The notes below the pieces were generated by a model. It made no database searches and was not told the origin of the DNA. It saw only the letters and a list, made by a program, of their open reading frames with translations. A program made the translations under genes and the position numbers. Shown one piece after another: positions 27,157 to 55,012 of a stretch of DNA of 64,000 nucleotides (positions within the stretch are counted from its first letter, which is position 1; each line of letters starts with the position of its first letter). The stretch lies in NCBI GenBank assembly GCA_964538685.1, contig CAZIFD010000003.1, forward strand, positions 757 through 64,756, in the 5' to 3' direction. This DNA comes from an uncultured Bdellovibrionales bacterium. GTDB taxonomy: Bacteria; Patescibacteriota; Minisyncoccia; Moranbacterales; UBA2206.

Positions 27157-27251
27157 TTCCTGAATTAATTCGGGAATTTGTTGCCAATTAAGTAAGCTAA
27201 TGACCGTCCCAGAATGGTTCTATTTTTTTATTATATCACTAAACAAAAACA
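27157..27251. repeat. 95-bp direct repeat, copy A (94/95 identical to 33651..33745). Contains a near-palindromic operator TTCCTGAATTAATTCGGGAA and a minus-strand extended -10 (TGATATAAT)
   Basis: Direct sequence comparison of the two copies. Confidence 0.85.
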
Positions 27252-27556
27252 ACCGCGTTTAGCGATTGTATTTGTGGAAGGTCGCGCCTTTAGATCATCT
27301 TCTCAGTGTCGCCGGATTTCTAATAACTTTTTATGGCTTTCGTATCTCCTACCGATCGGACCCTATCTGTCGAGTCGCAGTTTCCCAATAACCTTTTACT
27401 TACTTCTCCGCCAAACATATTTATATCCAGGAGGTGCTGGTGGTTTTGGTGGTTTGATTTCCGGAATTCTTGGGATACGAGGCCCTCTTGGACCTCTAGG
27501 AATTTTAATTTTTGGAATCACAAGCGGACCATTGGGATCTTTTATCAGCTTCCATG

Positions 27557-28939
27557 TCATACCCTTTCACCCCCTTTCTCAATCATCTCTTCAACTTTTC
27601 TTTTGGCTTCTTCTAATAATTCTTTGGCTTTCCTGCGCGCTCCATGTGACTTCTGCACAAGATTGGCAATTTTTTCTTGAATTTCTTTTGGCAAAATTGG
27701 AACAACGACATTTTTAATTTGCTCCGGTTTCCAGTGAGCAATGACCGACCCGCCAGCATCTCGTTCAGCCTGCATTTGTCCGACCAAAGAATTTAGACAT
27801 AGTGCCAAATATTCTGCTTCGACATCATCATCTTTTAATTTTAACCGCAAAGTTCCGCCAGAAATAATACCTTGGATATCTTCTTTGAGAACGTAAGCAA
27901 TCCCTGGCGTCGCATCCTTGGTTAAAAGGATTTCGCCTTTTTTCGGCTCAAAATTATTTTTTAACTCATCATATAGCTTATCGCTCAAGTATTTTTGATC
28001 ACTTTCAACCACCCCAAATTTTGTCATACTACTAACTCGAATAAAAACTTTGCCTTCTTCCTGATATTCTTCCGCTCCAACCTCAATCCCTTTTCTCACA
28101 GAAACCAAATCGCTCAGTTTTTTGAAATTTTGAGATTTGATTTTCAAAAATAGTTTCTCATATTTTTTTTGAAAATATTCCGCATCTATCCGCTCTGCAC
28201 CCAAGACATCCGAAAAATTTACAATCGTTGATAAATTTTCCCCCGCATCAGAATTTTCTAAATTCAATTCTTTCAAGAGTAGCCTTTCGGCTCGTTGATA
28301 AAAGCTAATAGACTTTCTTTTTTCATTTACAATTTCAGAATATAAATCTTCAAAAATATCATACTTTGCACTTTCGCTTAATGGCACAATTAAACTCTCT
28401 ATATCTAAAACATTTAACTTTAATTGGATATTTCCACTAGCTTTTCTAAAAATTTGCGCCTGACCAAACTTGCTTAATAGAAAAAATAAAATGAAAGATT
28501 TTATTTTATTGTTTAAATTTTGCAATCTTATTCCAATATTATTTTCGCTTATATTAACTTCCCCGAAGCTATCATCAATAACAGACAGCCTGCCAATTGT
28601 AGCAATTTTTGATAGAACGATATCTCCAATATTCAAATGGGTGCTATAAATTCTTTTATTTTCTTCCTCTGAAATATAAACTAAATTATCTTTATCAATA
28701 AAAATGTCCGAAATATCACCAATGCGAATAAATGGGATGCCGTCGCTTTGATATGATTCGCTTTTCAGGGTAGAGCCAAATGGACCGCTAAAAACTTTTT
28801 CTGATATATTTTTTATTGTTTCGAATTTATTTTTTTTTATTTGATTTTCCACATCTAAATACTCTGGCTGATAATATTCAGCATCCAATCGCATCGCGCC
28901 TTCAAGTTGAGATTTTTGGATTATTGAAAAAGTTATCAT
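27557..28939 (-). CDS. hsdS: Restriction-modification specificity subunit (HsdS/BcgIB-like, two target-recognition domains)
   Basis: Duplicated TRD-plus-conserved-spacer architecture (RLDAEYYQPEY ... ERIDAEYFQKKY). Confidence 0.8.
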   Translation of the reverse strand: MITFSIIQKSQLEGAMRLDAEYYQPEYLDVENQIKKNKFETIKNISEKVFSGPFGSTLKSESYQSDGIPFIRIGDISDIFIDKDNLVYISEEENKRIYSTHLNIGDIVLSKIATIGRLSVIDDSFGEVNISENNIGIRLQNLNNKIKSFILFFLLSKFGQAQIFRKASGNIQLKLNVLDIESLIVPLSESAKYDIFEDLYSEIVNEKRKSISFYQRAERLLLKELNLENSDAGENLSTIVNFSDVLGAERIDAEYFQKKYEKLFLKIKSQNFKKLSDLVSVRKGIEVGAEEYQEEGKVFIRVSSMTKFGVVESDQKYLSDKLYDELKNNFEPKKGEILLTKDATPGIAYVLKEDIQGIISGGTLRLKLKDDDVEAEYLALCLNSLVGQMQAERDAGGSVIAHWKPEQIKNVVVPILPKEIQEKIANLVQKSHGARRKAKELLEEAKRKVEEMIEKGGERV

Positions 28940-28940
28940 T

Positions 28941-29270
28941 TTATTTGCTAAAAATCCACTTATATTTTTTAAGTTTTTCGAGATATGTTAACTCTGCCTT
29001 CTTTTTATCTATTTTATTATCATATTTTACCCTTAAGACATTCTCGATTTTTGTTCTGATGCCAGAAAAAGTTAGGCCTCTTCTAGCCATATCCGCCTTA
29101 ATATTTTCTTGATCTTTCAAATATTCATTTTTTAATTCTGCTATTTCTATTCTCTTTATTTCTATTTCCTTATCAATTTCAAGGCCCTTTAATTTTCTAT
29201 TTTCTAAATACAAATAGACAGTCATCAGTCCCAATATGCCATTCAGTATTTTGGATATTATATCCCACAT
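28941..29270 (-). CDS. Small protein with N-terminal TM and coiled-coil
   Basis: 109 aa with a 2-bp gap to hsdS. Confidence 0.45.
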   Translation of the reverse strand: MWDIISKILNGILGLMTVYLYLENRKLKGLEIDKEIEIKRIEIAELKNEYLKDQENIKADMARRGLTFSGIRTKIENVLRVKYDNKIDKKKAELTYLEKLKKYKWIFSK

Positions 29271-29276
29271 ATTCCT

Positions 29277-29591
29277 TTATAAAATTTTAACTATAATTTT
29301 AATCATAAAATAAGCTGAAACTATTAAACCAAACAAAAACATTCCCCATAGAAACTTTCCAAAATATGTTGTCTCATAGCTAAAAATTCCGCTAGGAGTG
29401 GGTAAAGAGTCTTTTCTTTTACCCAACAAAATTGAAAGTCCCATAATAGTCACCCCCATTGATAAACCGAACAAATTTTTATTTTCAAGAAAAGAAATGT
29501 CATACTGAACAGAAATAAACATCAAAAAAATTCCCAAATAAATAAAGATGTAAAATTTATTAATTTGTAATTTTCCAATGACTTCCTTCAT
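29277..29591 (-). CDS. Small 3-TM membrane protein
   Basis: 104-aa hydrophobic ORF in the same operon. Confidence 0.45.
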   Translation of the reverse strand: MKEVIGKLQINKFYIFIYLGIFLMFISVQYDISFLENKNLFGLSMGVTIMGLSILLGKRKDSLPTPSGIFSYETTYFGKFLWGMFLFGLIVSAYFMIKIIVKIL

Positions 29592-29644
29592 TTTTAAAAA
29601 TATTATCCTTGATTAAAGCGTATTATTGGTGAGTATAGCGACTA

Positions 29645-29756
29645 TTGACAATCTATCAGAAACTGCTATACTTACAATGTCTTTCGGTCAACATAGACTG
29701 AAAGGGTATTACATCCAAGAGCAGTCCTCCTTGCGGAGGGCTGTTTTATTTCTTTT
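29645..29756 (+). ncRNA. Candidate small RNA, antisense-oriented within the RM/NYN operon
   Basis: Near-consensus promoter (TTGACA 29645-29650, 16-nt spacer, TATACT 29667-29672). About 78 nt downstream lies a GC hairpin (CAGTCCTCC-TTGC-GGAGGGCTG) followed by TTTTATTTCTTTT. An 8-bp inverted repeat (AGTATAGC/GCTATACT) brackets the promoter. Confidence 0.3.
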
Positions 29757-30327
29757 CAGATCTGTATCTCAACTCCTTCCCCCAAACATCTTCTTCAATT
29801 TTCAATACATCAAAATATCCGTCGCCACCGGTTTTCAATTCCCGAGAAGCGTTGTTTTCTGAAGAAAAAATATATACCTTCTTGCCCCTATTTTTTAAAT
29901 AAGTTACCAATGCTAAAAAATCCGAATCTCCACTGAATAATATCGCAGTATCATATTTCTTTATATGGTGCATTGCATCTATTGTCATTTCAACATCCAT
30001 GTTTCCCTTTTCCTCGATAGCCTGTCCGTTATCCGTAACTATCGAAATGCGTTTCAGTTCCTTTTTTCTAACAACAAAACCCAAACCCTTCTTCAGGAAT
30101 GTAAAAAACTTATGCTTTCCATCCGTGCTATAATCACGAGTTCCTTCGGCCGGATAAGCAGTATAATAAAATACTTTTATTTCGGTTGACTCAAATTTGT
30201 TTTTAAGGTAGTTTCTTAATTTTTCTAAATCAAAAAGTCTCCCCTTCGTCTTTTGAGCTTGCCAAAGATTGGAAGCGTCAACAAAAACATAGACTGCATT
30301 TTTATTTTGTTTTTCTTGGTCATGCAT
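29746..30327 (-). CDS. NYN domain (LabA-like) nuclease
   Basis: Conserved acidic motifs VFVDASNL, DVEMTIDAM and SGDSDF. Sits 6 bp downstream of the methyltransferase gene. Confidence 0.75.
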   Translation of the reverse strand: MHDQEKQNKNAVYVFVDASNLWQAQKTKGRLFDLEKLRNYLKNKFESTEIKVFYYTAYPAEGTRDYSTDGKHKFFTFLKKGLGFVVRKKELKRISIVTDNGQAIEEKGNMDVEMTIDAMHHIKKYDTAILFSGDSDFLALVTYLKNRGKKVYIFSSENNASRELKTGGDGYFDVLKIEEDVWGKELRYRSEKK

Positions 30328-30332
30328 AATAT

Positions 30333-32264
30333 TTATTTTTTCATAAACCTCAAAAACTCTTCCGCGATTTCTTCCAGATCATGATCAATGATTTTCTTTC
30401 CATTCGGGTCAAACATCACATTTCCATCCTTGTCTTTCTTGTAGACATAATCCCCCGAAGTATCTTTTCCGCCTCTCTTTGAAACCGCCATAAAAATCGG
30501 ATAGTCATCTACTTTTGGACAAAGCGGTCCGGCCTTCGGATCATCATTCCATTTTTGCAAAAACAACACGCTTGTTTTTGTCCCGGTATGCGGCTTGAAA
30601 GTGTTTCCATGAAGTCCAACGACTGCCAAAAGCCTGGCTTTGTCCAGAAAGAAACGGCGCACATATTCCATTTGAGTATTATTCAGGATTCCTTGCGGCA
30701 AAACAATGGCCATTCTTCCGCCCGGTTTTAGAAAATTCAAGTCTCTTTCAATAAAAAGAACATCGCGAGAAACCTTGTTTTGATGCTTATTGGTTTTTTG
30801 AAAATCTTTGTCCCACTTAAAGCCCAGGTCATATCGATTGAGAAGTACCCCTTTGATTTCTCCGGCAAATGGCGGATTAGTGATGACTATATCAAAATCA
30901 AAGTCTGTCATTTTCTCCTGATTTCTTCTGTCTTCTTCCGGATCTTTTAATTTTCTAAGAAATGGCCGGAATTTAGCTTTGGCCTCTTCATTCCAAACTT
31001 CGCTGTCGAGTGAATTGGCATAAGTCACATTAGTTTTTCCGTCTCCAGCAATCAGCATCATGGCTTTTCCGATTTTAACACTGCGAGGATCAAAATCGAT
31101 TCCAAACAAACGTTTTTCGGCATAGTCTTTGCGTTCCACATCGTAGCGCTCGCCATATTTTTCTTTGGTAATTTCCCTTTTCCAAACATATTGCATGGCA
31201 TGAAGCAAAAAACCACAGCTTCCGGCTGCCGTGTCGATAATATAATCATTGGAAGTTGGAGCAAGCATCTTGACGGCCATATCAATAACATGGCGTGGTG
31301 TGAAATATTGGCCCTTTTCTCCTTTGGCATCCAGATTGATTAAATATTCAAAAGCATCGTCAATCACTTGAAGATTTGATCCAAACAGGCGGTATTTTTG
31401 AAGAAGAGAAACTGCCGGCACAACAACATTTTCTGGAATCTCCAATTCATCATTTGCCTTGAAAACTTCCCGCCACTCTCTTTTGGCATCTTCGAAAAGA
31501 CGTTCAATATTATTGAGATTTTCTTTGTTGGTAGCTCCAGCGATTACCCTAAACCTTCTATTTTCATTTCTTGGAGTCCGAATATCATCATAGAGCTTGG
31601 CATAGATAAGTTTGAAAATTTCATCAAAAGAATTAACGCCACTATTAGCCAGAACGACTTCCTGCAGATCATAGACCAGTTGCTGCAGATTTGGGATTTC
31701 ATCCAAGTCGTCATAAGTAAGCTTTTTTGTTCTAACATCCTCCACCGTTTCATTGAATTTGGGAATTTCCGGCAAATCTTCAAAAAGGTTAGGATCGGTT
31801 CGGAGAATATTATTTTGAATTTTTCCGTCCGTTAGAATCAGGATCGGCGCGCCAGTCGCATTAGCGTAGCTCTTGAGCTGCCCTAGTCCATCTTTTACAT
31901 CAGGTTTTTTGACCTCAACCACAAGGTATGGAGTTTTTCCGTCTTCCCGATAAATTACAATGTCCGCCCTTTTAGATCCAATCTCTCTTCCAAATTGAAC
32001 ATCTACCTCAACATCCAGTCGATCTAGGGGATATTTATAAAAATTAACCAGCTTATATATCATAAGTTGGCGAACAATTTCTTCCGGTTTAGCTTGGATA
32101 CTTTTTTTTCTTTTTAAACATTCAAGATAATATTTTCCTTCTTTTTCCGAAAAGCGAATAACTTCTTCAATAGTAATTCCTTCAAAAACCGAAAGCCCAA
32201 ATTGCATATCTGGATTATGAAATATCTTGCCCAAAATTTCGCTAGTCTTTTTTTGATCTACCAT
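30333..32264 (-). CDS. Fused PD-(D/E)xK endonuclease (HsdR_N-like) plus gamma-class N6-adenine DNA methyltransferase (BcgI-A-like type IIB / type I-like RM subunit)
   Basis: N-terminal D...EVK nuclease motif (RADIVIY...YLVVEVKKP). MTase motif I (IIDTAAGSCGFLL) and motif IV (NPPF). Confidence 0.8.
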   Translation of the reverse strand: MVDQKKTSEILGKIFHNPDMQFGLSVFEGITIEEVIRFSEKEGKYYLECLKRKKSIQAKPEEIVRQLMIYKLVNFYKYPLDRLDVEVDVQFGREIGSKRADIVIYREDGKTPYLVVEVKKPDVKDGLGQLKSYANATGAPILILTDGKIQNNILRTDPNLFEDLPEIPKFNETVEDVRTKKLTYDDLDEIPNLQQLVYDLQEVVLANSGVNSFDEIFKLIYAKLYDDIRTPRNENRRFRVIAGATNKENLNNIERLFEDAKREWREVFKANDELEIPENVVVPAVSLLQKYRLFGSNLQVIDDAFEYLINLDAKGEKGQYFTPRHVIDMAVKMLAPTSNDYIIDTAAGSCGFLLHAMQYVWKREITKEKYGERYDVERKDYAEKRLFGIDFDPRSVKIGKAMMLIAGDGKTNVTYANSLDSEVWNEEAKAKFRPFLRKLKDPEEDRRNQEKMTDFDFDIVITNPPFAGEIKGVLLNRYDLGFKWDKDFQKTNKHQNKVSRDVLFIERDLNFLKPGGRMAIVLPQGILNNTQMEYVRRFFLDKARLLAVVGLHGNTFKPHTGTKTSVLFLQKWNDDPKAGPLCPKVDDYPIFMAVSKRGGKDTSGDYVYKKDKDGNVMFDPNGKKIIDHDLEEIAEEFLRFMKK

Positions 32265-32268
32265 ATTA

Positions 32269-32907
32269 TTACTCTACTTTAGAAAGATTTAAAATTACTT
32301 TTCCCTGGAATTCAACTTCTTCCGGAATAATCACCTTGGCTTCATAGGCTGGATTTTCCGGTTTCAAATATCTCTTTCCGCCTTCAGCAATAAAGCGTTT
32401 AACAGTTGTTCCTTCATCCGTCCTGGCAATGACAATATCTCCGCTCTTGTATTCTTTTGATTCCTTAACTAATAATTTGTCCCCGTCATCGATGCCAGCG
32501 TTGATCATAGAGTCTCCGCTAACCTTTATGATAAAAACATCCTTTATCTGCTGAATATTTTCGTTATATAAAAATTTATCAGACAACGGCATCCAACTGG
32601 TAAAAGCATCGACATAAGATTCAATATATGGTCCGCCCGCGCTTGTTCCGGCAACCCTAACCAGAGGTTTTCTGTTTATTTCTTTATACCCTAAAGGCAA
32701 TATCTTAATTCCACGCGCTTGTCCATCCTCGCGCTTAATACATTCCTTCCTTTCTAATATCTCCAGAAAATTCAAAACCGATTGATTAGAAGACACACCC
32801 AATTCCTCTTTCAAGTCCGCCAAGGTTGGCGGAAATCCAGAAGATTGAATAGCGTCATATATTGACTCAAGGACTTTTTTCTGTTTTGAAGTAAGATATT
32901 TACTCAT
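32269..32907 (-). CDS. lexA: LexA repressor (wHTH plus S24 peptidase)
   Basis: N-terminal LexA DNA-binding domain. C-terminal Ser (GDSM) and Lys (KR) catalytic dyad. 4 bp upstream of the MTase gene. Confidence 0.8.
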   Translation of the reverse strand: MSKYLTSKQKKVLESIYDAIQSSGFPPTLADLKEELGVSSNQSVLNFLEILERKECIKREDGQARGIKILPLGYKEINRKPLVRVAGTSAGGPYIESYVDAFTSWMPLSDKFLYNENIQQIKDVFIIKVSGDSMINAGIDDGDKLLVKESKEYKSGDIVIARTDEGTTVKRFIAEGGKRYLKPENPAYEAKVIIPEEVEFQGKVILNLSKVE

Positions 32908-33103
32908 TAATCTAATTATATATGACTATAAAGTCTTGTCAAGTGTCTTTATTTAAGCCATTTTTAAACTATTTATTTTAGGATAAAAATCTTGACTTAT
33001 TTCGAGAACCTGCTAAAATTATACCTTAGAAGTACTTTTCTGGTTCCCCAGAAACCAGTTAATAAACCTGCCGGAGTCTGGGGCAAGGGCCTACAATAAA
33101 ATT

Positions 33104-33420
33104 ATGATTGGATCATTCAGGGAACCTTTTCCGTTTAACAATGATTCTGTCTCGAGAAACGCACCTGATTCAATGGGAGTTTATTACTGCGGGAAATTAA
33201 AGACAGACAATGTCAACGCGCTTTCACCCGTCCACTATGTTGGAATGTCAGGAGAAAGCATAAAGGGTCGTTTACAGGATCACATACGAAAAGACAATTG
33301 GCCAGATGTGACTCATTTCGGTTTTGAGGTATGATCTACTGAGTCTGAAGCTGAAAATCAAGAAGCAAGAGAAATTGCTCGGCTACGACCAAAATATAAC
33401 GAGCAGGGAAAATAGTTATA
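33104..33420 (+). pseudogene. GIY-YIG nuclease gene interrupted by an in-frame TGA
   Basis: GVYY...YVGMSG...R motif, then a TGA at 33335. The frame continues through ESEAENQEAREIARLRPKYN, giving the GIY-YIG Glu/Asn residues. Confidence 0.5.
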
Positions 33421-33435
33421 TTTTGTAACGCTGGA

Positions 33436-33468
33436 AAGAGCTAGTTTAGTCTAGCTCTTTTTCATTTC
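33436..33468 (+). terminator. Hairpin terminator (AAAGAGCTAG-TTTAGT-CTAGCTCTTT plus T-rich tail)
   Basis: Palindrome followed by TTCATTTCTT. Sits between the convergent GIY-YIG pseudogene and the AbrB-like gene. Confidence 0.5.
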
Positions 33469-33638
33469 TTCCAATCCCTAATCACCACTCCCCCACGGAC
33501 GCGCTTGACGACAACTTTCTGTTTCTCTTTCCACCCAAGCTCACGAACAACTTCAATCGGCAAAGTCAATCCGATTGATCCGTTGCCGGATTTAGTCAGC
33601 TTGCGAATGTCTTTTTCGGTTAATTTTTTGTTTGCCAT
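33462..33638 (-). CDS. AbrB/SpoVT/MazE-family small DNA-binding protein (antitoxin-like), orphan copy
   Basis: 58 aa MANKKLTEKDIRKLTKSGNGSIGLTLPIEVVRELGWKEKQKVVVKRVRGGVVIRDWKK. Not in the ORF track (under 60 aa). It is 83% identical in core to the 35228..35407 paralog. Confidence 0.55.
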   Translation of the reverse strand: MANKKLTEKDIRKLTKSGNGSIGLTLPIEVVRELGWKEKQKVVVKRVRGGVVIRDWKK

Positions 33639-33650
33639 AAGTTTTATTAA

Positions 33651-33745
33651 TTCCTGAATTAATTCAGGAATTTGTTGCCAATTAAGTAAGCTAATGACCG
33701 TCCCAGAATGGTTCTATTTTTTTATTATATCACTAAACAAAAACA
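33651..33745. repeat. 95-bp direct repeat, copy B. Contains the perfect 20-bp palindrome TTCCTGAATTAATTCAGGAA and a minus-strand TGATATAAT -10 driving the AbrB-like gene
   Basis: Identical to 27157..27251 except one base (A/G inside the palindrome). Confidence 0.85.
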
Positions 33746-33758
33746 GCTACATTGGTAG

Positions 33759-34592
33759 CTATTTCTTACTGTTTAATTTAAGTTGCTTAGCATTCTTTTT
33801 GGTTATAACTTTTCTGCCAGTTTTTTTCTCTATGTCTTTTCTAGCATTACCGGCCACACTGCCACCTTCGCGCGCCGTTTGTCTGTTTTCTTCAAAATTT
33901 TTCGGCTCGCGTTTTTGCGAAATTTCAGTCGTGACAGTTTCCGCCAACATATTCAATACCAATTCCAAATTAGTCATATTGTCGCGCAAATTTTCTTTTT
34001 TCAAATCTTTTAATTTTTTATACTCTTTTGTTGTGAGTCCTGCCCAAGCTTTAGTAATTTCATTGGTTAATATAGCAAAATCCAAACCTTCTTTCACTCC
34101 ACGCATTTCCCATTCATCAGTTAAAGATTTTCTAATTTCAATACTCTTTAGTCTTTGATTGATCCATTCTCGGCTATAGCCTTTTTGTAGATAAGTTTTC
34201 AAGGCGCGATTGATTGCCAATTCCGGATCAGCGGTTTCCTCCAATCTTTCATAACCAACCCGAGCCAACCAAAGCTTAAAAGGCTCAGCCTTTGGCGAAG
34301 GCACGGATTGAATAAGGCGAAGAACATTTTCCGTATCCAAAACATCAGTCAGATAGAATTTGCCGTCGCTGGCTTGCATTTTCAGTTGTCCGATTTTTTC
34401 GGACAACTCACTTCCCTCCTTTTTCAGCTTATTTTTCAGGTCATTCCAGTATTTTCTTGGCCGATCAGTTTGCGCCAATATTTGAATTATATCCATCACC
34501 GAAAAATACCACAGCTCTTTTTCCTCGTCCCAGTGACGGCGAATTTGCTTACCCTCAAAAATCGCAATTTGTTTTATCTTCTTGGATTTCAT
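33759..34592 (-). CDS. DinD-like DNA-damage-inducible protein with N-terminal Bro-N domain
   Basis: N-terminus IAIFEGKQIRRHWDEEKELWYFSVMDIIQIL (Bro-N). The C-terminal half resembles DinD. Confidence 0.65.
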   Translation of the reverse strand: MKSKKIKQIAIFEGKQIRRHWDEEKELWYFSVMDIIQILAQTDRPRKYWNDLKNKLKKEGSELSEKIGQLKMQASDGKFYLTDVLDTENVLRLIQSVPSPKAEPFKLWLARVGYERLEETADPELAINRALKTYLQKGYSREWINQRLKSIEIRKSLTDEWEMRGVKEGLDFAILTNEITKAWAGLTTKEYKKLKDLKKENLRDNMTNLELVLNMLAETVTTEISQKREPKNFEENRQTAREGGSVAGNARKDIEKKTGRKVITKKNAKQLKLNSKK

Positions 34593-34675
34593 AGATTTAA
34601 ATTATTACTGCCGGTTTTCCCAATCTTCACTAAACCAGAAACCGCGGTTGTCATGATATAAATAATTCCTTTCAT
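34589..34675 (-). other. 28-codon mini-ORF encoding a GIY-YIG-like N-terminal fragment (MKGIIYIMTTAVSGLVKIGKTG); its TGA overlaps the ATG of the DinD-like gene
   Basis: Direct translation. GIIY and KIGKT match GIY/YIG positions. The ATGA overlap suggests coupling or a relic of a fused GIY-YIG/T5orf172-Bro-N gene. Confidence 0.3.
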
Positions 34676-34850
34676 ATTTATTCACTTAAATAGTATTTTC
34701 TATAGAATCATTTATTTAAATCATCTACTATATAATTAATCCCATCTTTAATTCCAACAAAACCCTTCGTATAAACATGGCCACTCTCTTTTGACTTCCC
34801 TATTTTATATAGGATATCACCAACTGAATCCCAAACCTCTCTTATCTTAT

Positions 34851-35240
34851 TTATGCAGCCTGATTAAAAAATCGATAGTTGTCTTCCTGAATAATATTTT
34901 TCGACAGATGACCAATGTGCTGATTGCGGAGTATCACGCAAAATTTCATTTCTTTTTTTGCATTATCAATATCAATCTTTCGTGCGCCTTCTAAATCAAT
35001 GGCATATAGTGACCAACAGTCTTTTCTTTTTTGAAAAAATAAATCTATAGTTATCGCAATACTTCTAGTTAGATTATCAAGTATGAGCTGAAAACCAAAG
35101 TTATATCGATTACTTTTTATTTCAATGTTTTGGAAGAACTTATCATAAGCGTAAAGCTGATCATGTAATTTTAACCACTCCCTATAGAGAAAATGATAAA
35201 TTTTTTCTTTCTCTTTTTCCATTTCCCTTACTTCCTCCAA
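34851..35240 (-). CDS. Hypothetical protein with HEPN-like Rx5H motif (candidate toxin)
   Basis: 129 aa, predicted helical, with RNQHIGH near the C-terminus. Its start overlaps the stop of the upstream AbrB-like gene by 13 bp. Confidence 0.4.
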   Translation of the reverse strand: MEEVREMEKEKEKIYHFLYREWLKLHDQLYAYDKFFQNIEIKSNRYNFGFQLILDNLTRSIAITIDLFFQKRKDCWSLYAIDLEGARKIDIDNAKKEMKFCVILRNQHIGHLSKNIIQEDNYRFFNQAA

Positions 35241-35407
35241 TCCTTAATCACTACTCCTCCACGAACGCGCTTAACAATAACCTTTTGCTTTTCTTTCCAG
35301 CCTAAATCATCCACCATATCTTTCGGCAAAGTAAGCCCGATAGATTTCCCACCACCGGATTTGGTTAATTTTCTAATATTATTCTCGCTTTGAATTCTTC
35401 TGGCCAT
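35228..35407 (-). CDS. AbrB/SpoVT/MazE-family small DNA-binding protein (candidate antitoxin)
   Basis: 59 aa MARRIQSENNIRKLTKSGGGKSIGLTLPKDMVDDLGWKEKQKVIVKRVRGGVVIKDWRK. Preceded by the CTGAATTAATTCCTGAAT operator-like motif. Confidence 0.55.
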   Translation of the reverse strand: MARRIQSENNIRKLTKSGGGKSIGLTLPKDMVDDLGWKEKQKVIVKRVRGGVVIKDWRK

Positions 35408-35524
35408 ATTTTTGTTTTATAAATTACTGAATTAATTCCTGAATACTTTCAGCTTTTCAGACTTATTCTCCCCCTCAAAAACTACCCTAAGCTTATAACA
35501 AAACACGGCTTTAGTAAAACCAAG

Positions 35525-35556
35525 TTTGATATCAAAAAACCCGCCGTTAGGCGGGA
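35525..35556 (-). terminator. Rho-independent terminator (CCCGCC-GTTA-GGCGGG plus T-run on the minus strand)
   Basis: GC hairpin followed by T-run, immediately after the 35547..36173 gene. Confidence 0.55.
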
Positions 35557-36173
35557 TTATTTACTCTTTTTTTTGCTTTTTCCCAAGCATACCTATATTC
35601 ATCTTCTTTTTCTGGACACACCAGCATTCTCCATTTGAATAATTTTTCCGCTTTCCCAGCTTGTTCTGCCAATAAAAATTCTCTCCTTAAAGCAAGTTGA
35701 TGATTCCTCTCTCTCATTTCTTGAGTAAATTCTTCCTCCCTTTCTTCCAAAAAACCCCTCTTTGCTCTTATCCATACTTCCGTTATCTCGTGCTCAATAA
35801 TGAAAGGAATCAAATCCTCATAATTTTCTCCGTCTATAGAGAACTTGCTAATATCAATGGCTATTTCAAGATTGGTGATATATTTTTCAAAATCATCTTT
35901 TGGGCTGATTTTAAAATTTATTAACCCAAGCGCCGGACTTTCAGCAAAATTTTCGCTCCAATTTTCATCATCAATCATACTGGAAAGCCAACTCAAAAAT
36001 TCTTGATGACTAAAATAGCTTATCTTATTTTTAGCCAATTCATAAAATGATTTTTTAGAATCATTAATGCTTTTCTCAATTTTGTGAGGAGGATTAATAT
36101 TTGAAGATTCTGGCATTTTAAACATTTTATACTTTCTTTCGTCTGTTTCATCCTTGTTTTGAAAATTCTCCAT
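35547..36173 (-). CDS. Hypothetical protein
   Basis: 208-aa acidic ORF with no recognised motif. Adjacent to the tRNA-Ser pair. Confidence 0.45.
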   Translation of the reverse strand: MENFQNKDETDERKYKMFKMPESSNINPPHKIEKSINDSKKSFYELAKNKISYFSHQEFLSWLSSMIDDENWSENFAESPALGLINFKISPKDDFEKYITNLEIAIDISKFSIDGENYEDLIPFIIEHEITEVWIRAKRGFLEEREEEFTQEMRERNHQLALRREFLLAEQAGKAEKLFKWRMLVCPEKEDEYRYAWEKAKKRVNNPA

Positions 36174-36190
36174 AATATTAATAAAACTTC

Positions 36191-36280
36191 TGGCGGGAAG
36201 GCAGGGATTTGAACCCTGGGACCCTTTTACAGGTCAACACGTTAGCAGTGTGCCGCTTTCAACCACTCAGCCACCTTCCC
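36191..36280 (-). tRNA. tRNA-Ser (anticodon GCU)
   Basis: Manual fold: GGGAAGG acceptor, long variable arm, anticodon loop CUGCUAA, encoded CCA. Confidence 0.85.
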
Positions 36281-36308
36281 AATATATATTTTTTAAAACT
36301 TCACTTTT

Positions 36309-36405
36309 TCTTTCCGGCGGAAGAGGTGAGATTCGAACTCACGGAACCCTTTCAGGTTCGACAGTTTTCAAGACTGTTCCCTTAAACCACTCGGGCACTC
36401 TTCCC
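36309..36405 (-). tRNA. tRNA-Ser (anticodon UGA)
   Basis: Manual fold: GGAAGAG acceptor, long variable arm, anticodon loop CUUGAAA, T-loop GTTCGAATC. Confidence 0.85.
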
Positions 36406-36532
36406 CTAATCCAATTTTCGCATTTTAGCATTTAATAATCAATTTGTAAACCCAAGCTATTTTTTTATTATAACCTATTTTGGATAAACAATTAATCGTG
36501 CTAAAATCAAAAAAGAAAAATAAGCTAAAAAA

Positions 36533-46821: not shown

Positions 46822-46894
46822 GCCCTTATAGCTCAGTTGGTAGAGCAGTTGCCTCTTAAGCAAACGGTCCCAGGTTCAAGTCCTGGTGAGGGCA
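46822..46894 (+). tRNA. tRNA-Lys (anticodon CUU)
   Basis: Manual fold with anticodon loop CTCTTAA. Confidence 0.85.
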
Positions 46895-46906
46895 CGGAGA
46901 AAAACA

Positions 46907-46975
46907 TGGCGGGTATAGTTCAATGGTAGAACACTGGTTTGTGGTACCAGCTACCTGGGTCCAATCCATCCGACC
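46907..46975 (+). pseudogene. tRNA-His-like fragment (intact acceptor-5', D-arm and GUG anticodon arm; no matching T-arm or 3' acceptor)
   Basis: GGCGGGTATAGTTCAATGGTAGAAC-A-CTGGT-TTGTGGT-ACCAG, then non-complementary sequence. Confidence 0.3.
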
Positions 46976-54974: not shown

Positions 54975-55012
54975 TCCTTCTGGCAAACAAAAAACCGACT
55001 TTTCAGTCGGCG
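54975..55012 (-). terminator. Terminator after atpC (CCGACT-GAAA-AGTCGG plus T-run on the minus strand)
   Basis: Hairpin plus T6. Confidence 0.55.

Follow-up and report, generated by a model that had tools for sequence, protein, structure and literature searches.

The stretch of DNA analysed here (the window) comprises 64,000 nucleotides, positions 757 to 64,756 of contig CAZIFD010000003.1, and is assigned by GTDB to the Patescibacteriota. On its minus strand lies a cassette that begins with lexA and continues with the gene for a 643-amino-acid (aa) protein, here termed A, three intervening open reading frames (ORFs), and an hsdS-like gene, S. A and S have the features of a two-subunit restriction-modification (RM) enzyme resembling those of type IIB, while the space between their genes is a slot whose content varies among relatives. 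On the evidence set out below we consider it probable that the cassette is a LexA-headed operon for such an enzyme, with exchangeable cargo between A and S.

A preliminary description, made from the sequence alone, had listed six ORFs; all six lie on the minus strand where it had placed them, and a Pfam check recovered each domain that it had named (LexA, HSDR_N_2 plus N6_Mtase, NYN and Methylase_S). The ORFs and a hydropathy scan – a crude one, from which all transmembrane (TM) segments given here are predicted – agree that A and S are separated by a NYN protein, a protein with three TM segments and a protein with a single N-terminal TM segment. In the direction of transcription of the cassette, the features are:

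32915-32942, minus strand: lexA operon promoter (TTGACA, 16 nt, TATAAT; 12 of 12 matches)
32923-32936, minus strand: putative LexA operator, AGACTTTATAGTCA, a palindrome of the GACyAwwTrGTC type in the -35/-10 spacer
32269-32907, minus strand: lexA, 212 aa, with a winged helix-turn-helix (HTH) domain and an S24 autopeptidase
30333-32264, minus strand: gene for the type IIB-like RM A subunit, 643 aa
29746-30327, minus strand: NYN gene, 193 aa, LabA-like, a PIN-like predicted RNase; cargo
29677-29754, plus strand: structured small RNA of about 78 nt, with a terminator stem at 29718-29747 and a U-tail that overlaps the NYN stop codon
29645-29672, plus strand: small-RNA promoter (TTGACA, 16 nt, TG-n-TATACT; 11 of 12 matches), convergent with NYN
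29622-29651, minus strand: candidate internal promoter for the 104-aa and 109-aa genes and hsdS (TTGTCA, 18 nt, AATAAT; 10 of 12 matches)
29277-29591, minus strand: 104-aa ORF with three predicted TM segments; cargo if a real gene
28941-29270, minus strand: 109-aa ORF with an N-terminal TM helix and a helical region
27557-28939, minus strand: hsdS-like gene, 460 aa, with two target recognition domains (TRDs)
27396-27560, minus strand: ORF of 54 aa, rich in proline and lysine, that begins in an ATGA overlap with the stop codon of hsdS
27249-27269, minus strand: hairpin with a T-run after it, resembling a terminator; the operon probably ends here

The genes had been described as tightly spaced, which holds in part. 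Four nucleotides separate the lexA stop from the start of the A gene, and the 109-aa gene stops 1 nt before hsdS starts; the distance between NYN and the 104-aa ORF, however, is 154 bp and holds an opposite-strand promoter, the structured RNA and its terminator. A protein identical to A is on record from another contig, 6.5 kb long, where the genes stand in the order seen here. Loci compared with the window carry L-numbers; counts of synteny are from the best 80 genome loci, to which further metagenome, assembly and viral loci were added, and taxon labels are those in the titles of the metagenome-assembled genome (MAG) records.

Identity of the A and S subunits

A contains an HSDR_N_2 domain (residues 60-168, E = 1.7e-23) and an N6_Mtase domain (residues 300-575, E = 1.9e-34). 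Its overall order is that of an N-terminal PD-(D/E)xK nuclease, a helical connector, a gamma-class N6-adenine (N6A) methyltransferase and a C-terminal helix, the last predicted at residues 630-642 with a local pLDDT of about 75-81. Across 11 A sequences with identity down to 60%, the nuclease residues E86, D101, E117 and K119 are invariant, as are methyltransferase motif I (residues 344-352, D344..GSCGF352) and the NPPF motif at 463-466. The closest solved relative by sequence is RM.BsaXI, which matches over the connector and methyltransferase with 93 bits; a profile of the N-terminal domain had one match in the PDB, the BsaXI endonuclease domain (E = 4.7e-4). In the profile alignment the four nuclease residues fall on E73, D90, E105 and K107 of BsaXI, residues that are reported to be absolutely conserved among type IIB enzymes and whose substitution by alanine abolishes cleavage.

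An AlphaFold model of the nuclease domain alone (pLDDT 61, pTM 0.60) contains the alpha-beta-beta-beta-alpha-beta core. Queried with this model, Foldseek returned three BsaXI entries as top matches (best E = 7.6e-4), and the other matches were mostly of the restriction-endonuclease fold (Cas4, Bax1, MGME1, Hjc, the R2 RLE domain and DrdV). A full-length model of A built on the 11-sequence alignment (pLDDT 51) was too poor for a fold search and was discarded. Pfam, the residue alignment with BsaXI and the fold match all bear out the earlier characterization of the 643-aa protein as a BcgI-like fusion of an HsdR_N-type nuclease to a gamma-class N6A methyltransferase. The partner had been called an HsdS-like subunit with two TRDs, and such it is: Methylase_S matches in two stretches (Pfam), and a Specificity_I model matches over the full length (PADLOC).

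As maintained at the outset, there is no HsdR within the 64 kb: no HsdR-like or other restriction translocase was found among the proteins of the window. The sole large helicase is RecG; the other large ORFs encode DNA ligase, a type II/IV secretion ATPase, an RND pump, LeuRS and an ATP synthase subunit. Nor do A and S have a consistent helicase or translocase partner across the 80 loci: a ResIII helicase domain is present in three of 38 large neighbouring proteins, one of the three belonging to a separate type ISP enzyme.

Two other assignments were rejected. A classic type I RM system lacks support both in the window and in its relatives, where HsdR is not systematically present, and the nuclease is on the M-like chain. 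MADS genes provide the best NCBIfam matches of A and S, namely the MAD2 methyltransferase and the MAD5 S subunit, but the scores fall far under the cut-offs (316 bits against 720 for MAD2, 157 against 400 for MAD5), no other mad model matches and no other MADS genes are present. Because the catalytic residues align with those of BsaXI, S has two TRDs and a translocase is absent, the pair was filed as a type IIB-like RM+S system; on the sequence data, membership of the BcgI/BsaXI type is well supported. The characterised enzymes of this 'RM + S, Type I-like' group (BcgI, BaeI, SdeOSI, Hso63250II and HpyUM032XIII, with BsaXI the solved representative) have the same nuclease–connector–methyltransferase–tail chain, a separate two-TRD S and no translocase; their subunits measure 626-680 aa, a range that includes the 643 aa of A, and bear a C-terminal tail, and their sites are bipartite. 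Unlike them, the window system is headed by lexA and has its two genes separated by cargo, and cleavage on both sides of the site is here a prediction. Being only 643 aa long, A also lacks the 'knob' and the 'paddle' of BsaXI.

The nearest relatives of A, which share 80-89% of its residues, come without exception from Patescibacteria (Moranbacteria, Paceibacterota, Nomurabacteria, Uhrbacteria, Gracilibacteria and Absconditabacterales), and this places the host, too, in the candidate phyla radiation. Homologues at 45-50% identity are spread over many phyla, archaea and viral contigs, where A and S form a bare two-gene module; stand-alone examples come from Neisseria perflava, Aggregatibacter segnis, Treponema and Nitrosopumilus. 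Between the window and L002-L007, A is 81-85% identical, LexA 62-76% and S only 33-56%. Divergence of S beside so conserved an A is the usual mark of specificity turnover, and is expected of a working specificity subunit.

For a restriction gene, A is conserved to an unusual degree (80-89% identity in several candidate phyla, and more than LexA), which raises the question of whether A and S might be mainly a housekeeping methyltransferase or DNA-processing enzyme rather than a means of restricting phage. Possible roles are epigenetic marking, or the breakdown of imported DNA for nucleotide salvage during repair. Patescibacteria lack nucleotide synthesis and take up DNA; moreover, nearly all of the Patescibacteria loci sampled have the cassette, and it sits among core genes, for example in L199 directly after the rpsM-rpoA-rplM-rpsI cluster. 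Against such a role, the catalytic residues of the nuclease are invariant, the TRDs of S diverge fast between near-identical A subunits – the specificity-switching signature of defence systems – and the two-gene module occurs sporadically in many phyla and in viral contigs, as mobile RM systems do. In addition, the slot gathers genes of defence type. On balance, a housekeeping enzyme seems to us quite improbable. The high conservation of A does predict a methylation barrier shared among Patescibacteria, which would confront attempts to transform them.

Linkage to lexA and a conserved putative operator

The product of the first gene carries LexA_DNA_bind and Peptidase_S24 domains (Pfam) and scores 140 bits against the NCBIfam equivalog TIGR00498, for which the cut-off is 111. 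The S24 dyad, comprising the Ser of G-x-SM (GDSM in the window) and the Lys of T-x-KR (VKR in the window), is retained in 37 of 37 LexA sequences, and the linker contains Ala-Gly.

lexA lies immediately 5' of A, on the same strand, in 26 of the 29 loci labelled as Patescibacteria. The labels include Paceibacterota, Moran-, Woese-, Staskawicz-, Azam-, Nealson- and Roizmanbacteria, as well as Beckwith-, Portnoy-, Ryan-, Falkow-, Gribaldo- and Saccharibacteria. The same order is found in eight others (five unlabelled 'bacterium' MAGs, one Saganbacteria MAG and two 'Gammaproteobacteria' MAG contigs) and in seven further metagenome or assembly loci (L086, L100 and L197-L201). Beside the A genes of all other phyla sampled there was no lexA, and there was none in 11 viral contigs. 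A search of the full-text literature for LexA together with Patescibacteria, CPR (candidate phyla radiation) or Saccharibacteria, which did not cover Sanchez-Osuna et al. 2017 on the Patescibacteria SOS network, found no mention of a linkage between lexA and RM genes.

All lexA genes of these cassettes are preceded by a near-consensus promoter, and 35 related loci share the promoter layout of the window. A palindrome, (ccc)GACyAwwTrGTC(ggg), lies within the -35/-10 spacer at the same position in at least 30 lexA promoters. When 1.6 Mb of loci were scanned with a weight matrix, 37 sites scored 14 bits or more; 30 of these are at lexA promoters and the remaining seven have no promoter context. 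The only other high-scoring site in the window, at 54996, was dismissed as a terminator hairpin. From this arrangement we infer autorepression of the operon by LexA, whose self-cleavage would raise expression of A. Control of the operon by SOS through LexA, which the preliminary description had raised as a potential, is plausible, and the case for it is stronger than first proposed because both the linkage to lexA and the operator within the promoter are conserved across Patescibacteria.

Alternatively, the lexA-like gene could be a dedicated controller of the cassette and not the global SOS repressor. It would then act in the manner of a C-protein or RptR, with little tie to DNA damage, and would set the timing and level of the enzyme, for example upon entry into a new host. 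The linkage between lexA and RM genes is very tight, the cassette stands in different neighbourhoods as if it were a mobile unit, the operator was seen only at its own promoter in 1.6 Mb, second LexA-like genes are present in L003, L031 and L077, and autoregulating first-gene repressors of RM islands, RptR among them, are known. Nevertheless, the protein passes the equivalog cut-off for LexA and keeps both the S24 Ser/Lys pair and the Ala-Gly linker, machinery for which only RecA-dependent self-cleavage has a use; furthermore, a scattered regulon would not show in neighbourhoods as small as those sampled. A dedicated controller divorced from DNA damage is, in our judgement, unlikely.

Several further observations concern the lexA genes and their surroundings. 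Just upstream of the lexA promoter, 44-95 bp from the lexA start, the DnaA-box consensus TT[A/T]TNCACA, most often as GTTATCCACAG, occurs in 23 of 42 loci, where about 0.02 would be expected per region of that size; the 64-kb window itself has no exact match. The loci are L003, L004, L007, L009, L017, L023, L024, L027, L030, L031, L033, L050, L053, L063, L068, L069, L071, L072, L078, L086, L100 and L199/L200. The boxes suggest an input of the replication initiator into the lexA promoter. L048 and L062, labelled as uncultured Gammaproteobacteria, carry a Patescibacteria-type lexA-A-S cassette with the same operator; mis-binning is the probable explanation, horizontal transfer of the whole cassette being the other. 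In L111-L113, from marine metagenomes, a divergent lexA is directly followed by a DUF3800 gene and a homologue of the 109-aa gene, with no A or S genes, which marks either a decayed cassette or a capacity of LexA-headed operons to carry cargo alone. On the other side of lexA, the window has a divergent orphan ORF of 76 aa (33104-33334, plus strand). A conserved divergent partner was rejected, as the small ORFs found there (this one, one for an HNH protein of 82 aa in L201 and a Cys-rich one of 68 aa in L197) are unrelated; the position upstream of lexA thus seems to be variable too.

The A-S slot and its cargo

Outside Patescibacteria, S mostly follows A directly, with 24-250 bp between them. 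In lexA-linked loci the gap ranges from 27 bp, in L043 and L048, whose slots hold no cargo, to about 2.1 kb, with zero to three genes on the same strand. Approximately 55 slot proteins fall into 36 sequence clusters. Pfam matches among them are to DUF3800, OLD-type AAA_15 plus TOPRIM, Trypsin_2, DUF4760, DUF4145 (a HEPN family) and LPD3, with a weak RnlA-like match; a TM segment is predicted in 18 of 40 cargo proteins, and the gene directly 5' of hsdS encodes a membrane protein in 15 of 26 cassettes. Even relatives whose A is 87-88% identical to that of the window carry a different slot (a 324-aa protein of unknown function, DUF3800 or Trypsin_2, and not NYN), and their cassettes occupy different chromosomal neighbourhoods with different flanks.

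The three intervening proteins had been proposed to form, with the RM genes, a composite defence operon. This did not survive comparison: the triplet of NYN, three-TM and TM/coiled-coil proteins is absent from roughly 200 loci, and its position is that of a hypervariable cargo slot. With no conserved triplet and such varied content, the intervening genes do not make up a defined composite system; they are exchangeable cargo. Taken singly, two of the three do recur with RM genes – NYN in six slot loci, and the 109-aa protein before hsdS – while the three-TM protein is an orphan. By comparison of the loci, the slot is a recombination hot spot with swappable accessory genes, and lexA-A-[slot]-S is a conserved Patescibacteria cassette.

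The NYN domain (PF01936) is recognised by Pfam with E = 3e-26, and the acidic residues D17, D111, D117, D134 and D136 are invariant in 21 orthologues; the protein is accordingly a predicted metal-dependent RNase of PIN-like fold. PADLOC gave a weak match to a NYN model and a weak match (30 bits) to HEC-09. Orthologues with 60-81% identity occupy the same slot in L004, L053, L086, L096, L100 and L103. Others stand beside other RM parts, in L085, L092, L104/L107 and L109, the last being a classic hsdR-NYN-hsdM-...-hsdS locus, and others again are placed amid housekeeping genes (L082, L089/L090 and L105/L106/L108).

Every NYN orthologue examined, in about 30 loci with 23 distinct sequences, is adjoined by the small-RNA unit. 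Both promoter hexamers are kept in about 21 of the 23 distinct loci; the terminator has a 13-bp stem and a T-run that continues into the NYN stop codon, such that RNA and ORF overlap by the last ~10 nt only. The RNAalifold consensus consists of a 5' hairpin, an invariant unpaired AGGGU..UACAUCC.AG and the terminator. In the alignment 98% of cells pair, with compensatory changes in eight of 20 pairs; none of 500 shuffles reached the observed covariation, and slid controls were only 41-61% paired. The window RNA folds at -33.4 kcal/mol (z = -6.6). The RNA begins with AUG, but a coding sequence was rejected: indels of 1-4 nt in the hairpin loop shift the frame between loci, from which it follows that the RNA is non-coding. 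Rfam had no match at gathering score, and only chance matches at E up to 10. We regard the RNA as a candidate for an undescribed structured RNA family that travels with NYN.

A covariance model located two copies away from NYN: one 3' of a DUF3800 gene in the lexA-RM slot of L011 (12866-12948, 70 bits), and a second copy in L084 (1481-1560, 92 bits), beside another gene. Among viral contigs there were 65 pattern matches, of which only two matched the model, weakly (26-28 bits). DUF3800 genes elsewhere also have convergent units of promoter plus hairpin, unlike the NYN-linked RNA in sequence and with no match to the Rfam DUF3800 motif at gathering score:

L004, 8145-8262: candidate DUF3800-linked RNA unit
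L111, 2171-2303: candidate DUF3800-linked RNA unit
L024, 7654-7788: candidate DUF3800-linked RNA unit
L071, 9578-9736: candidate DUF3800-linked RNA unit

Convergent RNAs that overlap the 3' end of their partner are familiar from type I toxin-antitoxin pairs, such as txpA/RatA and bsrG/SR4 of B. subtilis. As in these pairs, a small RNA that has a promoter and a terminator to itself runs into the 3' end of a gene whose product may be toxic, and the two travel together. The likeness stops there. In place of a small membrane peptide, the putative toxin is NYN, a soluble RNase of 193 aa; RNA and ORF share about 10 nt only, barring read-through; the RNA has an invariant single-stranded motif, and it also stands beside DUF3800 (L011) and another gene (L084). 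A conserved trans target in the NYN mRNA was likewise rejected, the positions given by RNAduplex being scattered from +50 to +480. With a soluble putative toxin, so short an overlap and no conserved site for pairing in trans, the module was not classed as a type I (antisense RNA) toxin-antitoxin pair. The invariant single-stranded motif suggests recognition by a protein or by a target in trans, and the most economical guess is that the RNA restrains or partners NYN, as an RNA antitoxin or a cofactor.

Neither of the small membrane proteins has a match in Pfam. The 104-aa protein, with its three predicted TM segments, matches only itself among 5.8 billion clusters. For the 109-aa protein nine homologues were found, which share the N-terminal TM helix, MWDI.SKILN at the start and a conserved C-terminus, YLEKLKKYKW(I/L)FSK. 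Members of this family lie immediately 5' of hsdS in four of five contexts, the exception being L111-L113 (after lexA and DUF3800, with no RM genes); as in the window, the gene either stops at the hsdS start or runs into it in L004, L114-L118 and L119/L120. That it abuts or overlaps hsdS in four independent contexts suggests translational coupling to the specificity subunit. Among the NYN, three-TM and 109-aa proteins, the 109-aa protein is, to judge by gene order, the only one with a specific link, namely to hsdS.

It is also possible that the cargo has no working tie to the restriction enzyme at all. NYN and its RNA would then be an autonomous module in a permissive hot spot, either toxin-antitoxin-like or a housekeeping RNase with its RNA, and the three-TM ORF would be spurious or a passenger. 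NYN accompanied by the same RNA is indeed found at the housekeeping sites listed above, the RNA has its own promoter and terminator, slot content differs even between cassettes 87-88% identical in A, two slots are empty, the 104-aa ORF is an orphan and the comparable protein HEC-09 gave no defence (see below). Set against this are the presence of NYN in exactly this slot in six further loci and beside unrelated RM parts in four more settings, together about half of the loci with enough flank; the position of the 109-aa family before hsdS in four of five contexts; and the enrichment of the slot in the nuclease, RNase, protease and membrane effector types that are typical of defence genes embedded in RM loci. 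We take an unconnected cargo seriously, while leaning against it.

Proposed mechanism and known systems

In the mechanism that we propose for the LexA-headed operon, A would carry the nuclease and N6-adenine methyltransferase, and S would read a bipartite site. By analogy with BcgI and BsaXI, an A2S complex would methylate host sites and cut unmethylated DNA on both sides of the site, without a translocase. LexA bound to the spacer palindrome would repress a single transcript that starts with lexA and A; DNA damage, or the replication of phage or foreign DNA, would stimulate self-cleavage of LexA through RecA and hence yield more enzyme. The slot would gain varied genes, many resembling second-line effectors of abortive-infection type (RNases, nucleases, proteases and membrane proteins). 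In the window it would hold a self-contained module of NYN and convergent RNA, in which the RNA probably restrains or partners NYN, together with an orphan three-TM ORF and a small membrane protein coupled to hsdS. An abortive-infection or RNA-targeting role of the cargo, proposed at the outset, may be conceived on the models of PrrC and HEC-09.

A number of points weigh against this account. Both AlphaFold models of A are of low to moderate confidence (pLDDT 51 and 61), and PADLOC models derived from REBASE assign A to 'Type I methyltransferase'. Three Patescibacteria loci (L012, L059 and L077) are without lexA, some loci have the second LexA-like genes noted above, and two lexA-positive loci bear the label Gammaproteobacteria in their MAG titles. 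The operator was not found at any non-lexA promoter in the 1.6 Mb sampled, which thus gave no sign of a wider SOS regulon for this LexA. SOS induction of an enzyme able to cut the newly made DNA of the host looks risky. Within the window, the strong hairpin 3' of NYN may block read-through from the lexA promoter, in which case hsdS may depend on the internal promoter at 29622-29651, which is weak and not conserved in other loci. The 104-aa ORF, an orphan, may not be a gene. Finally, HEC-09, from Hma systems, is the one NYN protein that has been assayed as embedded cargo, and it did not protect against the phages used (bioRxiv 2024.01.29.577857).

Type IIB RM enzymes, and repressor-controlled RM islands with embedded genes, are known kinds of system; what is unusual here is that the SOS repressor itself would be the controller, that the arrangement is conserved group-wide and that a small RNA is linked to NYN. 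The nearest parallel in layout is the type I RM-DarTG2 island of EPEC (enteropathogenic Escherichia coli), in which the first gene encodes an autoregulating repressor, RptR, with sites that overlap the island promoter, an unrelated module is embedded between the RM genes, and the insertion site is a recombination hot spot for defence genes (PMC12255303). Repressor-first layout, embedded module and insertion hot spot are common to both. RptR, however, is a 9-kDa helical protein, whereas the window repressor is a LexA with a self-cleaving S24 domain, and hence has a built-in DNA-damage input; the EPEC island is a type I RM system with its slot between hsdS and hsdR, and the window has a type IIB-like enzyme, a slot between A and S, and a Patescibacteria host.

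For the cargo, Payne et al. (bioRxiv 2024.01.29.577857) describe embedded genes as common, and often defensive, in loci of the type I RM, BREX and Hma systems. By analogy, the best model for the role of NYN is PrrC, the anticodon nuclease of the EcoprrI type Ic operon, where the RNase is silenced by the RM proteins for as long as no phage has put restriction out of action; PrrC, like many HEPN RNases, is encoded within an RM operon and forms a second line of defence (PMC3710099). Both are latent RNase genes, predicted as such in the case of NYN, inside an RM operon. PrrC, however, combines a HEPN domain with an ABC ATPase where NYN has a metal-dependent PIN-like fold, NYN has its own small RNA and also occurs outside RM loci, and masking by the complex, here A2S, is known only for the PrrC-type case. 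HEC-09 is alike in being a NYN/PIN-like predicted RNase embedded in a methylase-containing defence locus; it differs in an extra N-terminal HTH-like region and in its Hma host system, and the accessible part of the preprint (bioRxiv 2024.01.29.577857) reports no associated RNA. An RNA such as that linked to NYN may explain the inactivity of a NYN cargo protein cloned without its surroundings.

Patescibacteria are a huge and mostly uncultured group in which the regulation of immunity and the DNA-damage response are almost undescribed; they live attached to other cells and depend on nucleic acids that they take up. Should LexA truly drive a restriction enzyme throughout the group, SOS would be tied directly to defence or to the processing of imported DNA. 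The slot would also constitute a 'guilt-by-embedding' catalogue of candidate effectors from a lineage missing from current defence databases. To the joint proposition, that a core LexA operon of Patescibacteria is an immune module and that NYN with its ~78-nt RNA is an RNA-governed RNase module of a new kind, we give only a small chance. If it were true, RecA triggered by DNA damage or phage would free a burst of type IIB enzyme together with whichever effector currently occupies the slot, and restriction would be an ancestral, phylum-wide SOS function; the NYN RNA would be an antitoxin or cofactor, and its module would move between RM loci and sites in the core genome.

The remaining observations concern the neighbourhood of the cassette. 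The 54-aa ORF after hsdS has no homologue in any compared locus, and its reality as a gene is uncertain; small ORFs that follow hsdS elsewhere, a 63-aa zinc-ribbon-like one in L114 and a 69-aa one in L199, are unrelated to it. On the other side, the region 33400-36410, which extends from lexA to a pair of neighbouring tRNA-Ser genes (36191-36280 and 36316-36404), contains a Bro-N domain gene (33759-34592), two similar ORFs of 58-59 aa (33462-33638 and 35228-35407) and several orphan ORFs, and could be the remnant of an integrated element beside the cassette. Further away, directly after tRNA-Lys (46822-46895), a 51-nt match to the tRNA model (46909-46959, plus strand; 30.7 bits, just over the gathering score) is a truncated or degenerate tRNA copy.

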